The position numbers and the translations under genes are program-made. Positions 7,510 to 29,345 of a stretch of DNA of 64,000 nt are shown piece after piece. The notes under the pieces were generated by a model. That model saw only the letters and a program-made list of their open reading frames with translations, was not told where the DNA came from and did no database searches. Positions within the stretch are counted from its first letter, which is position 1. Each line of letters starts with the position of its first letter. This DNA is from a virus (taxonomy: Duplodnaviria > Caudoviricetes), in the IMG/VR virus record IMGVR_UViG_3300030376_003877, positions 1 to 64,000 of that record. One strand, written 5' to 3'.

Positions 7510-10004
7510 TATTGAAAGAATAATTCAAGGTTTACAACTTTCTCAACGTTCCATCCGATGGCGTCAAGTATGACCTTAAGAGGTTCTAAAAAGGCTTTGT
7601 TGAATTGTAGGTCATAGTCGATATATTTGTCAAGACCAAGTTCGTGAGGGAATTCTGAGATGAATGATAATACATTTTCTCTGATCGGATTTGCTTTTTT
7701 CAATGCTACAAACTTGATCTTTTCTCCATTATTAATAAGAGAATACTTACTATCAAGTTTTTTCTCTTTAATATAATGATTATATAGCAGTGCTCCACGA
7801 ACATGCATTGGACATCCCTTACCATAAATGGTAGAGAAAGACTTATGCTTATTTACATCTGAGATTGACCTTGGAAATGCTATTTCCTCTGGAGTCAACT
7901 TTTTAAACTTCTCTCTAGCACTATCAATAAAATCAATCACCTCATCCTCAGTTCCATTCATCATAAGTTTAAGAGCATCTTTAATCATTTTCCTACAAGG
8001 AGCAGGAGTAGATGACTTAACTGCCTCAATACCCATCATTTTTAGTTTAGGTTCCTCGTAGCGAACACCTTCGCTATCCCATACATTGAGAATATATCTC
8101 TTCTTCGCTGTCCAGATGCCACGTTCAGCAATATTCTCACGCTTCATTTGCATTTTCTGTTCGTATGCATTTACATACGTCGCAAGATCTTGATAAGAGG
8201 ATTCGATGAACGGTTCCAACTTGTCCTCGCAGATCTTGTTAATGATCTCCACAAGTTTAATCTTTTCACTAATACGATTACTATAAAATTTATCAACAAG
8301 AGGTCCAAAATTAATATAGATTGAGTCGGTGTCAGATGCGATGACATAATCGACATTATCTGTTTTTAATAAATTATTTAGATATCCGTTCATACGATTT
8401 TCAATCCAACGGATAGAAGTTTGCCCTGAAAGCGTGATTGCTTCAGCATTTGCTAACTTAAAGTACCTGAAATATTGATTACCAATAGCACCATAAGCAC
8501 TATTAAGAGCAATCTTCTTCGCCATTTGAATGTTGTTACATCGGGCGATTTCCTTTTCAAGTGCGACAGTAGGAGTCTTCTCGTACTGCTGTTTTGCTGC
8601 GAGCATTCGTTTCTTGAAGATAACTCGTTCAGCATACATCTTCTCCATTAACTCAGGTAAAAATCCCTTTATATCCTTTCTGTACATTGCACCATTGCCA
8701 CAGACGGCATAGTCTTTATACTCCTCAAAAGTAATATCTTGATTGAGAATCTTATCAACAGTAACTGATGGATGCTTTGTATCAATCAATGTTTCTGGTG
8801 ATATATTATACTGCATCATTAAGTGAGGATATAGTGAGTTAAGGTCAAACGACACAACCCAATCATACACTCCAGGTTTTGGTTCCTTTACATAAGCACC
8901 AGCATACTTATCATTCTTATCAGACTTATCCTTAGGAGGAATAACAATATTTCTATTCTTGAGGTAGTTGTAGATAATAGTATCCCACATCCTCACCTGG
9001 AACATCACATCAGTATAATTGACTTTGGCAGTATATGCCATCGTTAATGCAAGTTCAATCAGTTTCATCTTGTCCTCCATTCGGTCAACAAGTTCCACGT
9101 CAACAATGTTATAGTCTACAAACTTCTTCCAGTTACCACGATAAAAATCTTTAAAAGTATCAAACTCACTGTGATCTAGTTTCTTTTGTCCTAGTTCTAC
9201 TTCAGCAATATAATCCAATCGATAAGATTCTTGTGCCTTGTAAGTGAACTTCTTATACAGTTCCAAATAATCAAGTGTCGTAATACCAAGAAGTTCAAAA
9301 ACATTAAATACCCTACCAGAGATTTGAATCTCTTGATGGTTGATATATCCCCAAGGTGAAAGTTCCTTCATCTTCTTCTCACCCATAATCCGAGTGATAC
9401 GTCCACAAAGGTATGGAATATCGTACAGACGACAGTTCCATCCAGTCACAACATCAGGTGGATTGGTGGACCACCAATATAGAAATGCCTCAAGCATCTC
9501 TACTTCATCAGGGAAGTAATGATATGTTACGTTCTTCTGAGTAGGTGTATATGGTTTACGTCCCCAGGTTCTAATCTCTTTTGTTGTATAGTCCTGAATA
9601 GAGATTGTAAGCATCTCCTCAGAACAAGATTCTGGATCAGGGAATCCATGCTCTGCTTGAACCTCAATATCAATCGTTACTAGATTGATCTTCTTGATAT
9701 CAAACTTGATTTCTTCTGCTGGATAGTTATCAGAAATATACTGATATACATATCTCTCATTTCCGTAGATTTTGAACCCATCAATACCATCATACTTTTT
9801 ATAGAACTCGCGGCAATCGCGAACTGTTCCTGGTTGAATGGGTTCTACACTCTCACCTTCAAGTGTTTTCCACCTGCTTTCTTTCTTTGATTTTACATAT
9901 AGAGTAGGTTGAAACTTATCCTTATATTTTACTTTTCTTCCGTCTTCATAACCACGAACGAGAAAGTTGTCCCCAATCATTTGGACGTTTGTGTAAAACC
10001 TCAC
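7509..10004 (-). CDS. gp43: Family B DNA polymerase (T4 gp43-like)
   Basis: Exo DIEV, SFDLNSLYP, KIALNSAYG, ASDTDS motifs; 831 aa, uninterrupted. Confidence 0.97.
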   Translation of the reverse strand: MRFYTNVQMIGDNFLVRGYEDGRKVKYKDKFQPTLYVKSKKESRWKTLEGESVEPIQPGTVRDCREFYKKYDGIDGFKIYGNERYVYQYISDNYPAEEIKFDIKKINLVTIDIEVQAEHGFPDPESCSEEMLTISIQDYTTKEIRTWGRKPYTPTQKNVTYHYFPDEVEMLEAFLYWWSTNPPDVVTGWNCRLYDIPYLCGRITRIMGEKKMKELSPWGYINHQEIQISGRVFNVFELLGITTLDYLELYKKFTYKAQESYRLDYIAEVELGQKKLDHSEFDTFKDFYRGNWKKFVDYNIVDVELVDRMEDKMKLIELALTMAYTAKVNYTDVMFQVRMWDTIIYNYLKNRNIVIPPKDKSDKNDKYAGAYVKEPKPGVYDWVVSFDLNSLYPHLMMQYNISPETLIDTKHPSVTVDKILNQDITFEEYKDYAVCGNGAMYRKDIKGFLPELMEKMYAERVIFKKRMLAAKQQYEKTPTVALEKEIARCNNIQMAKKIALNSAYGAIGNQYFRYFKLANAEAITLSGQTSIRWIENRMNGYLNNLLKTDNVDYVIASDTDSIYINFGPLVDKFYSNRISEKIKLVEIINKICEDKLEPFIESSYQDLATYVNAYEQKMQMKRENIAERGIWTAKKRYILNVWDSEGVRYEEPKLKMMGIEAVKSSTPAPCRKMIKDALKLMMNGTEDEVIDFIDSAREKFKKLTPEEIAFPRSISDVNKHKSFSTIYGKGCPMHVRGALLYNHYIKEKKLDSKYSLINNGEKIKFVALKKANPIRENVLSFISEFPHELGLDKYIDYDLQFNKAFLEPLKVILDAIGWNVEKVVNLELFFQ

Positions 10005-10255
10005 TTGATAACTTCTTCGTACTTACCCTTCAGTTTAGTACTAGGTTCGACAATAGTCAAGATCTTATCCGAGGAAATCATGAACTCATTATCCATGGTG
10101 TAGTCTAGCAACCAAGGAGTAAGAGTAAGGTCAGATCCGATTACAAATGGTTCAATCAATTTACAATCAGGTTCTCCCAGTTCAGTGGCCACTTCTTCAA
10201 TCTGAGTGACTAAAGTAAGATTATTGGTCAGTAGTACAACTTTAAGGTTTTTCAT
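10001..10255 (-). CDS. Hypothetical protein between hsp20 and gp43
   Basis: 84-aa ORF with SD AGGAG; stop overlaps the gp43 start. Confidence 0.8.
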   Translation of the reverse strand: MKNLKVVLLTNNLTLVTQIEEVATELGEPDCKLIEPFVIGSDLTLTPWLLDYTMDNEFMISSDKILTIVEPSTKLKGKYEEVIK

Positions 10256-10329: not shown

Positions 10330-10761
10330 TTAGAGCCAGTCTTTACGGGCATGATGTTCGGGAACAAGTTTCCCCAAATTAACAGTCAAAAACCCATCCT
10401 CAAAAGTAACTGATCTAATTTCCGTATCCTCAGAGATTGTCCAGGAACGTGCAAACGACCGTTGAGCCAGACCCTTGTGTATGTAGTTCTCCTCGTCCTT
10501 CTTCGCCTCCTTCTTGCCCTCCACAGTGAGTTTACCATATTCTGTGTAGACATTGACTTCTTCCTTCTTAAACCCAGCCAGAGCGATTTCTAGACGCGAT
10601 GCTGTGTTGCTTTCTTGTATAACATTATATGGAGGGTAGTTAGACTCTTGATTGAAACTGAATACATTATCAAAGTAATCATTCATTCCAATACTGTTGC
10701 GTGTGATCCTGTCCATTAACTGGTCCAAGTCCGCAGCATTATACTTCATGAGGTTTCCCAT
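10330..10761 (-). CDS. hsp20: Small heat-shock protein (Hsp20/alpha-crystallin domain)
   Basis: NYPPYNV, LEIALAGF, YIHKGLAQRSF, FEDGFL motifs. Confidence 0.95.
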   Translation of the reverse strand: MGNLMKYNAADLDQLMDRITRNSIGMNDYFDNVFSFNQESNYPPYNVIQESNTASRLEIALAGFKKEEVNVYTEYGKLTVEGKKEAKKDEENYIHKGLAQRSFARSWTISEDTEIRSVTFEDGFLTVNLGKLVPEHHARKDWL

Positions 10762-10767
10762 TGTACT

Positions 10768-10818
10768 TCTCCTTTATTAAGCGAGATTTGATTGTGTGGA
10801 CCCCGAAGGCATCCGCAC
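10768..10818 (-). promoter_or_regulatory. Structured hsp20 5' UTR: cUUCGg hairpin plus ROSE-like SD-sequestering hairpin (candidate RNA thermometer)
   Basis: GUGCGGAUGCC-UUCG-GGGUCCACAC (10794-10818) and UCUC(G)CUU-AAUA-AAGGAGA (10768-10786), the latter containing the U(U/C)GCU motif paired with the SD. Confidence 0.55.
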
Positions 10819-10819
10819 T

Positions 10820-10827
10820 TATTTATA
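10820..10827 (-). promoter_or_regulatory. gp55-dependent late promoter for hsp20
   Basis: Exact TATAAATA just downstream of the regA terminator. Confidence 0.8.
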
Positions 10828-10837
10828 ACATAAAAAC

Positions 10838-10871
10838 AAAAAAAGAGGAGCGGTATTTACCGAACCTCTTT
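10838..10871 (-). terminator. Intrinsic terminator after regA
   Basis: AAAGAGG-TT-CGGT-AAAT-ACCG-CT-CCTCTTT plus U-tract; a second hairpin GAGACC/GGTCTC lies at 10893-10912. Confidence 0.75.
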
Positions 10872-10920
10872 ATAGGGTTTCCGACTTTTGTAGAGACCGC
10901 ACGAAAGGTCTCAGTCTTAT

Positions 10921-11370
10921 TTATTCCTTCTTCTGTTCGGTTTCTTCTACTTTATTCTTTTTGCCAATATTGTATTTTTGTTCTAGTATCCAATTATTTT
11001 TTTCCTTATATGGAAGAACTTTAATTTGATTCAAGGGAGCAATATCCATAATATTGTCTTCAAGTACAACACTTACGAGACCCCAATCAGTAAGCAAACG
11101 AGTAATACGATTCCTACGCTGAACATCGTTAACAGTAAGGTTAGCGTATTTGCCATCAAGAGCAAACAACTCCTTAAAATGCACGATATAATATTTACCT
11201 TGCTTATGTAAAATATGGCATGATTGGTAAAGTTTCTTTTCTTTACGAGATGCCACACCAATACGTGTGAGAGTTTCTCTTACCTTAAGGAAATCATCAG
11301 GAGCATTAAGTCTGACCTCAATCATTTTATCTTGAGACCAATTAACCTGAGGTTCAGAAGTCTGTGTCAT
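10921..11370 (-). CDS. regA: Translational repressor RegA
   Basis: PDDFLKVRETLTRIGVAS, LYQSCHILHKQGKYYIVHFKELFALDG. Confidence 0.97.
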   Translation of the reverse strand: MTQTSEPQVNWSQDKMIEVRLNAPDDFLKVRETLTRIGVASRKEKKLYQSCHILHKQGKYYIVHFKELFALDGKYANLTVNDVQRRNRITRLLTDWGLVSVVLEDNIMDIAPLNQIKVLPYKEKNNWILEQKYNIGKKNKVEETEQKKE

Positions 11371-11753
11371 TTTGTACCACCAGTATCAAGTCGTTGTTTA
11401 ATAAAGTCGATCTGTTCATTTGATAAAATCTTCAGGACCTGAGAGGCTTTCTCATTACTGTAACCATAGTATTGTTTAACACAATCTAAGTTTGTGACTT
11501 TATCCTTTCGGATCCAAGGAGAGAATCTCTTCCTTTTTCTCAAGATATTTATATAAAAATTATATTGCATATCTTTACTGAGGAAATGATACTTGTTCAT
11601 TTCGTTAGCAAACATAATACAATCAAGATGACCAGCAAGACATTTATTAACAATATATGGTGGATATTGATTAACGATATGGGGGTTTTCTTTAATAAGG
11701 TTTTCCTTATTAAAGTTTATTGAGTTCAGCCAGTCCTTCAGTTCCGGTTCCAT
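11367..11753 (-). CDS. gp62: Clamp loader small subunit (T4 gp62-like)
   Basis: LKDWLNSIN, YPPYIVNKCL, LRKRKRFSPW, VKQYYGYS; start set at MEPELK (11753). Confidence 0.92.
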   Translation of the reverse strand: MEPELKDWLNSINFNKENLIKENPHIVNQYPPYIVNKCLAGHLDCIMFANEMNKYHFLSKDMQYNFYINILRKRKRFSPWIRKDKVTNLDCVKQYYGYSNEKASQVLKILSNEQIDFIKQRLDTGGTK

Positions 11754-29333: not shown

Positions 29334-29345
29334 TATTTATTTATA
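29334..29345 (-). promoter_or_regulatory. Tandem late promoter boxes for gp22-gp23
   Basis: TATAAATAAATA. Confidence 0.8.

Follow-up and report, generated by a model that had tools for sequence, protein, structure and literature searches.

A conserved, ROSE-like two-hairpin leader precedes the small heat-shock gene hsp20 in T4-like cyanophages and may sense temperature

Introduction

T4-like cyanophages are among the ocean's most numerous viruses, and how such a virus sets the supply of its own small heat-shock protein is the question raised by one locus in a 64,000-nucleotide (nt) stretch of DNA from a T4-like ocean cyanophage (Duplodnaviria; Caudoviricetes; positions 1 to 64,000 of IMG/VR record IMGVR_UViG_3300030376_003877), hereafter the window. 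The gene at this locus, hsp20 (10330..10761, minus strand; ATG at 10761-10759), encodes a 143-amino-acid, IbpA/IbpB-like small heat-shock protein (Pfam HSP20, 1.9e-15), and hsp20 is part of the T4-like cyanophage core gene set (PMC3037559). A preliminary description of this DNA placed a leader of two hairpins directly upstream of the gene, the second of them closing over the Shine-Dalgarno sequence, and proposed that a late promoter supplies this leader and that it acts as an RNA thermometer of the ROSE type. Here we ask whether the leader is a genuine RNA element, to which kind of leader it belongs, and which signal it might report to the ribosome.

Results and Discussion

Structure of the hsp20 leader

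The whole element reads on the minus strand of the window, and the coordinates, motifs and pairings in the preliminary description proved correct throughout, both in the sequence and in the minimum free energy (MFE) fold, which has an energy of -18.6 kcal/mol and contains exactly hairpins I and II. Hairpin I (10794..10818, minus strand), found in the MFE fold and by RNAalifold, has outer pairs GUG/CAC, a core of GGAU(G)CC paired to GGGUCC, and a UUCG loop; the core pairs are G10814-C10798, G10813-C10799, A10812-U10800, U10811-G10801, C10809-G10802, and C10808-G10803, with G10810 bulged. It is followed by a single-stranded, A-rich linker, AAUCAAA (10787..10793, minus strand), which is unpaired in both predictions and which in relatives is variable in sequence yet A-rich.

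Hairpin II (10768..10786, minus strand) consists of the anti-Shine-Dalgarno strand UCUC(G)CUU (10786-10779), the loop AAUA (10778-10775), and AAGGAGA (10774-10768). In the fold, UCUCGCUU pairs with AAGGAGA and leaves G10782 bulged, as had been described. The Shine-Dalgarno sequence itself, AAGGAG at 10774-10769, lies within the paired strand and is separated from the ATG by a 7 nt spacer.

Conservation and covariation among relatives

The comparison set comprised 160 IMG/VR loci fetched by Hsp20 protein alone, 11 cultured Kyanoviridae-type phages, and one Agrobacterium jumbo phage. The same plan recurs in every leader, those of Syn9, S-RIM2, S-ShM2, ACG-2014f, S-CAM1, the freshwater phage S-CRM01, S-CREM2, P-TIM40, and C48C1 included, and the aligned Hsp20 proteins of these named phages (all except S-RIM2, P-TIM40, and C48C1) are only 35-45% identical to that of the present phage. 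Column conservation is 0.82 in the leader, close to that of first codon positions (0.83), and is 0.63 at third positions and 0.57 in the upstream spacer; within the leader, the stems are conserved at 0.9 or above and the loops at 0.5-0.7, with insertions and deletions. A covariance model built from the phage leaders (R1) has a single match in the window, and likewise in the whole 83-kb record, at 10759-10819 on the minus strand (70.6 bits), and it matches directly 5' of the hsp20 ATG in 100 of 100 loci chosen by protein alone.

Base pairs were counted in a model-fitted alignment of 99 leaders; such an alignment favours structure, and an unfitted MAFFT alignment of 61 leaders concurs, RNAalifold returning from it hairpins I and II, each with its bulged G. 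Across the 99 leaders, 88% of cells are paired, and 12 of the 15 pairs have changed on both sides. Compensated cells number 43, compared with 6.5 in shuffles, none of 500 shuffles attains any of these measures, and sliding the strands out of register drops pairing to 26-56%.

In hairpin I, every pair (9/9) shows changes on both sides, the six core pairs are 100% paired, and the bulged nucleotide is G in 99/99 leaders. The arms vary in concert (GGAUGCC/GGGUCC, GAAUGCC/GGGUUC, GGUUGCC/GGGACC, GAUCGCC/GGGAUC, and GUACGCC/GGGUAC), one pair is U-G in 67/99, and the loop is most often UUCG (26), GAAA (25), or GUAA (23), which are interchangeable stable tetraloops. A natural variant was seen in one locus (L112:355-403; IMGVR_UViG_3300008111_000018), where the end of the upstream gene, regA, continues directly into ...GGTCCACA; the leader there lacks the loop and 5' arm of hairpin I but keeps an intact hairpin II and Shine-Dalgarno sequence, which amounts to a natural hairpin-I deletion.

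The preliminary description had looked to homologues for retention of the Shine-Dalgarno pairing and its bulge, and both are kept: 98.7% of hairpin II cells are paired, and its bulged G is G in 99/99 leaders. The anti-Shine-Dalgarno strand reads CUCGCU in 92/99 and CUUGCU in 7/99, which bears out the U(U/C)GCU hallmark recognized earlier, and the change of C to U at the third pair preserves a wobble. The core of this hairpin is nearly invariant, since the Shine-Dalgarno sequence forms its 3' strand; a few compensated changes in the Shine-Dalgarno sequence are seen, for example CUUGCCU...AGGGAG in S-CREM2. U-G pairs at fixed positions switch to U-A or C-G in relatives, and a C-G pair of hairpin II switches to U-G; both place the constraint on the RNA of this strand. 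Judged by this comparison of sequences, the two-hairpin element is more than chance. Coding on the plus strand (open reading frame 10761-11024) was considered as well and rejected, because single-base insertions and deletions in the loops and linker disrupt every frame.

A DNA-level explanation has some published basis. The hsp20 gene of phage S-PM2d is responsive to phosphate limitation, and a stretch over its anti-Shine-Dalgarno strand is listed as a putative Pho box at -31 (PMC10976474); the conserved sequence might, on this view, be a protein-binding site in DNA, whether a Pho box, an operator, or part of a promoter. We consider this very improbable. The stretch lies 3' of a conserved -10 element and within the transcript, its TTAA-like part is the loop of hairpin II, which is variable in sequence and length, and the compensatory changes include G-U pairs, which are without meaning in duplex DNA. 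The Pho box was rejected on these three grounds, the conservation being better explained by the RNA reading.

Relation to ROSE thermometers

When the leader was compared with Rfam families, ROSE_3 (RF02523, from Pseudomonas ibpA) aligned across the full 69 positions of its model with matching pairs, at 20.5 bits (E 0.094, Rfam E-value scan). The same family was found in 14 of 20 relatives at 19-39.4 bits (best E 7e-5), and it was the sole family recurring at the site; the C48C1 leader gave 26.8 bits. The E. coli ibpA leader, a positive control, scored 100 bits on ROSE_2. With a ROSE_3-like architecture on the gene family that ROSE elements usually control, the leader belongs to a known kind; what is notable is its occurrence in a virus, in cyanobacterial hosts, and on a cyanophage core gene.

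The reverse search leads to the same bacterial leaders. For the leader of E. coli ibpB (L174:2896-2954, the K-12 ibpA-ibpB spacer), R1 gives 19 bits, with an E-value of 0.006 in 607 kb; it also recovers the Shine-Dalgarno hairpin of E. coli ibpA and finds a site in Roseibium marinum directly 5' of an IbpA-like gene, with GGAUGCC...GGGUCC followed by GUCGCUU...GAGGAC. A pattern scan of bacterial genomes was too loose to add to this, since almost all of its 120 matches were chance occurrences in G+C-rich genomes and the one in Roseibium marinum alone was real. At E <= 1, the Rfam ROSE families gave no report for the leaders of E. coli ibpB, Roseibium, or the Agrobacterium phage Atu_ph07, and the failure to detect the first two indicates that the curated ROSE models are narrow. 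Atu_ph07, a jumbo phage of an alphaproteobacterial host, itself carries a ROSE-like two-hairpin leader on a small heat-shock gene (L296:200-260), reading GGAUGC...GGUCC and then AUCUUGCU...GGAGAU (CUUGCU...GGAG).

The likeness to the ROSE_3 leader of Pseudomonas ibpA (Krajewski, Nagel and Narberhaus 2013, PMC3669281) extends to most of its parts. Both are 5' untranslated regions (UTRs), about 60 nt long, of an IbpA/Hsp20-type gene, in which a stable hairpin lies 5' (hairpin I) and a weak one 3' (hairpin II), the latter holding the Shine-Dalgarno sequence against a U(U/C)GCU strand with a G bulged opposite; the Pseudomonas consensus for hairpin I, GGAUGCC...GGGUCc with its own unpaired G, matches the phage core arms GGAUGCC/GGGUCC. 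The two differ in that the top of the phage hairpin II lacks a G-C pair, the phage promoter is a putative phage -10 or late-type element and not a sigma-32 promoter, the phage element resides in viruses of cyanobacteria living at ~10-30 C, and the AUG, free in Pseudomonas, is predicted to be paired in this phage subclade. The last difference reflects a predicted third hairpin (10741..10766, minus strand) in which CUCAU, from codons 4-5, pairs with AUGGG. This hairpin is confined to the subclade and was rejected as a feature of the family, the median probability of an unpaired AUG being 0.45, with values <0.3 in 48 of 126 leaders.

The leaders of E. coli ibpA (ROSE_2, RF01832) and ibpB share with the phage a Shine-Dalgarno hairpin of the form CUCGCU(U/G), loop, AGGAG, and have hairpin II energies similar to the phage's; in ibpB, a UUCG-capped hairpin I is likewise followed by ACUCGCUU...AAGGAG. 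The ibpA leader differs in having more hairpins, and ROSE_2, which detects it, does not find the phage leaders, while hairpin I of ibpB is unlike that of the phage in sequence. The ibpB intergenic region was reportedly described as a thermometer by Gaubig et al. in 2011.

Cyanobacteria have thermometers of their own (Synechocystis hsp17; Anabaena avashort and avalong; PMC4152365), which likewise occlude the Shine-Dalgarno sequence of a small heat-shock gene in a hairpin and establish that control of this type works in the cyanobacterial cytoplasm. The avalong element even has a ROSE-like anti-Shine-Dalgarno strand, but it differs in its bulged U and long hairpin 1, and hsp17 is a separate class. 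The phage leader follows the proteobacterial pattern and not that of the cyanobacterial host, and it is probably related to the proteobacterial ibpA/ibpB leaders.

A thermosensor reading and the evidence for and against it

The structure, conservation, covariation, and ROSE resemblance of the leader are demonstrated, and we give a probability of roughly 0.58 to its being a ROSE-type thermosensor, in which hairpin II would gate binding of the 30S subunit and hairpin I would serve as a 5' stabilizer and folding aid. The hsp20 mRNA would begin a few bases 5' of hairpin I, and hairpin II would sequester the Shine-Dalgarno sequence against the U(C/U)GCU strand with the invariant G bulged opposite, such that few ribosomes could bind at low temperature. 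Warming, or a stress that shifts the equilibrium, would open the weak hairpin II and yield more Hsp20, and no heat-shock sigma factor would be required. Hairpin I is not expected to melt; it most likely shields the 5' end and assists the folding of hairpin II.

The predicted energies are consistent with this division of labor. Isolated hairpin II of this phage has a predicted stability of -7.1 kcal/mol at 20 C, -5.6 at 30 C, and -4.6 at 37 C (range at 37 C, -4.1 to -4.6), and its family median at 37 C is -3.3 kcal/mol; in the same energy model and at the same temperature, the Shine-Dalgarno hairpins of E. coli ibpA, E. coli ibpB, and Roseibium come to -4.6, -5.1, and -4.5 kcal/mol, respectively. 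For hosts at 10-30 C, a stem of somewhat lower stability than those of enterobacteria would be suitable. Hairpin I is much more stable (median -7.6 kcal/mol at 37 C), and the contrast agrees with the melting and non-melting hairpins probed in Pseudomonas ibpA, where hairpin II is by itself enough for regulation and melts over the range of 25 to 42 C while hairpin I remains closed (PMC3669281).

Several observations weigh against the thermosensor reading. As a single sequence, the leader is not clearly beyond chance in either its fold (z-score -1.94; 11 of 200 shuffles fold equally well) or its predicted Shine-Dalgarno occlusion (rank 7 of 29 genes in the window, on crude gene calls), and the case rests on the comparison with relatives. 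Even there, the invariability of the hairpin II core means that support for this hairpin comes from conservation of the anti-Shine-Dalgarno strand and not from covariation. Two U-A pairs close hairpin II at its top in this phage as in most relatives, and of the flanking G-C pairs just the lower C-G is present; the phage leader thus lacks the Pseudomonas-type arrangement of G-C pairs on both sides of the core, and in the Pseudomonas thermometers the upper G-C pair of hairpin II is needed for repression (PMC3669281). Of the Rfam ROSE families (RF00435, RF01832, and RF02523), none has its gathering score reached by any phage leader, the best value being 39.4 bits for a ROSE_3 cut-off of 43, and by this curated test the phage leaders are not members of ROSE_3. 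The ROSE-likeness proposed earlier accordingly stands for the full-length ROSE_3 alignment and the conserved, covarying structure, and does not extend to formal membership.

Temperature itself is the other difficulty. In the nearest-neighbor model the accessibility of the Shine-Dalgarno sequence rises only gradually, being 0.06 at 20 C and reaching 0.18 at 50 C, and a gradual weakening on warming is what the model would predict for any hairpin. The hosts live at roughly 10-30 C, a range over which the hairpin II stem may or may not shift.

Another reading is a leader that carries no signal at all, in which hairpin I would protect the 5' end of the mRNA from host or phage-induced RNases and hairpin II would damp translation to a fixed low level. 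Predicted Shine-Dalgarno occlusion is indeed common among the genes of this phage, the exchange of UNCG and GNRA tetraloops in hairpin I is typical of a purely structural stem, 5'-terminal stem-loops are known stabilizers (discussed in PMC3669281), and the variant without the hairpin I 5' arm (L112) retains hairpin II. A plain damper, however, needs neither an invariant bulged G nor an exact U(U/C)GCU across phages with 35-45% Hsp20 identity, nor would one foresee its likeness to the ROSE-type leaders that this gene family has in bacteria, among which those of E. coli and Pseudomonas ibpA are validated thermosensors. A constitutive leader is, in our judgment, quite unlikely.

Hsp20 as a possible regulator of its own leader

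A signal other than heat is suggested by the encoded protein. The phage Hsp20 has 30-32% identity with IbpA and IbpB of E. coli, and among NCBIfam families it scores best with IbpB and IbpA, without reaching the cut-off of either. In E. coli, IbpA represses its own synthesis through its 5' UTR, which requires an irreplaceable R93, the aromatic Y34, and the cationic R97/K98, and it favours structured, thermometer-like RNAs (Cheng, Miwa and Taguchi 2023, PMC10474464). In the alignment, phage R101 falls on R93, Y42 on Y34, and R105 on R97. Among 13 divergent phage Hsp20s, R101 is invariant, Y42 is always aromatic (Y or F), and 12 of them have R or K at the position equivalent to R97.

By this precedent, free phage Hsp20 oligomers could bind the leader and block their own translation, and aggregating proteins would titrate Hsp20 away and relieve the block, with this mechanism acting alone or on top of thermosensing. 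The pairing of an IbpA-like protein with a ROSE-type leader is common to both systems, as are the equivalents of R93, Y34, and (mostly) R97, while E. coli IbpB, which lacks self-repression activity, has Q at the R93 position. The RNA offers further hints: the near-fixed (U/C)GCC...GG(G/A) of hairpin I and its invariant bulged G, common to the Pseudomonas consensus, Roseibium, and the Agrobacterium phage, exceed what protection of an end would need, and the same module, pyrimidine-bulged G-C-pyrimidine (Y-G-C-Y) paired to GGR, occurs in both hairpins. The phage differs from E. coli in that the K98 equivalent is cationic in none of its sequences, and in that E. coli IbpA binds its own leader, where binding by a phage Hsp20 is hypothetical; moreover, R93-like arginines are common among small heat-shock proteins generally and hence not diagnostic. 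Self-repression is the main rival to the thermosensor, though it seems to us somewhat unlikely as the explanation of the leader.

The thermosensor and self-repression could also be combined, in a dual sensor that cyanophages would carry along with an IbpA-type gene descended from proteobacteria. The bulged-G modules of the two hairpins would then be paired docking sites for Hsp20 oligomers, and translation would report aggregate load as well as temperature; we hold this to be fairly unlikely on the present comparisons. Across these readings, chaperone output is probably set at translation, with heat, the chaperone, or the two together as the signal.

Promoter element and start of the transcript

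The octamer TATAAATA (10820..10827, minus strand) precedes hairpin I and is a putative -10 or T4-late-type promoter element. A TG at 10830-10829 precedes it, and the resulting TGnTATAAA (TGT-TATAAATA, 10830-10820) is also compatible with an extended -10 element. If transcription starts ~6-7 nt past the -10 element, the leader would be ~57-58 nt long, in agreement with the earlier estimate of about 57 nt. The equivalent octamer in 119 distinct leaders is TATAAT(TA) in 67, TAAATA in 26, and TATAAATA in 12, most relatives carrying TATAATTA or TTAAATA in place of the last. Its end lies ~5 nt 5' of hairpin I in nearly all leaders, with the same spacing whatever the variant, and from this near-constant distance transcription should start at the base of hairpin I, and the mRNA should thus contain hairpin II with its two strands.

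The preliminary description had called this element a late promoter. T4-type late promoters have TATAAATA ~6-7 nt ahead of the transcription start and lack a -35 element. The exact TATAAATA is there, at 10827-10820, but the label is not general: it is made insecure by the occurrence of TATAAATA in just 12/119 leaders and by a count in the window at chance level. The window showed no enrichment of TATAAATA (5 copies, compared with 5.9 expected), and the count was therefore discarded as evidence for a late promoter. The five copies, all on the minus (coding) strand, are at 51-58, 2751-2758, 10820-10827, 11546-11553, and 29338-29345. No promoter class for hsp20 was found in the cyanophage literature searched.

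Two phages depart from this arrangement. In S-CAM1 (L167) and ACG-2014j (L171), no -10-like element adjoins hairpin I, and ~60-110 nt before the hsp20 ATG the two have in common TTTTACGCCAA, which follows a G+C-rich, terminator-like hairpin; in S-CAM1, a TATAAT-type element is located farther upstream of TTTTACGCCAA. These phages may have either a longer leader or a different transcription arrangement.

Genomic context

The conserved upstream neighbor of hsp20 is regA, a translational repressor gene (10921..11370, minus strand; Pfam Translat_reg, 1.8e-43), and regA-hsp20 synteny is common to many cultured phages. Two stem-loops lie between the 3' end of regA and the promoter element. The second of these (10838..10871, minus strand), just 5' of the -10 element, ends in a U-run and, read from the sequence, is terminator-like and would close the upstream regA unit; a simple terminator scan did not call the stem-loop at 10838-10871(-), and most relatives have an analogous G+C-rich hairpin with a T-run at this position. 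On the other side, the gene between hsp20 and the DNA polymerase (10001-10255, minus strand) is DUF6561 (1e-31). In two related IMG/VR contigs, a manA RNA motif (RF01745), already known from cyanophages, lies ~90 nt 3' of hsp20 (L050:1118-1312 and L039:1116-1310), with scores of 137 and 114 bits, respectively, for a cut-off of 55.2.

Significance for cyanophage biology

The preliminary description was not aware of any account of such control for cyanophage hsp20, and our full-text literature search found no paper linking cyanophage hsp20 to an RNA thermometer; phages were not mentioned in the ROSE surveys checked. The leader provides a concrete control point, a 60-nt RNA, for a cyanophage core gene. 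Within the literature searched, it would be the first RNA thermometer of the ROSE family assigned to a virus, and also the first to operate in marine picocyanobacteria, which control their own small heat-shock genes by different designs. It also corrects the published Pho box reading of the anti-Shine-Dalgarno strand (PMC10976474), and because cyanophages share the hairpin I sequence with Pseudomonas, an alphaproteobacterium, and an Agrobacterium phage, this hairpin may have a sequence-specific role beyond what is explained in the bacterial systems.

Control of this type would make the amount of phage chaperone depend on water temperature or proteotoxic load, and would thus bear on the outcome of infection in a warming sea. 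If the dual sensor were true, the virus would run a self-contained proteostasis feedback loop, independent of the heat-shock regulation of its host, in a highly abundant group of marine viruses.

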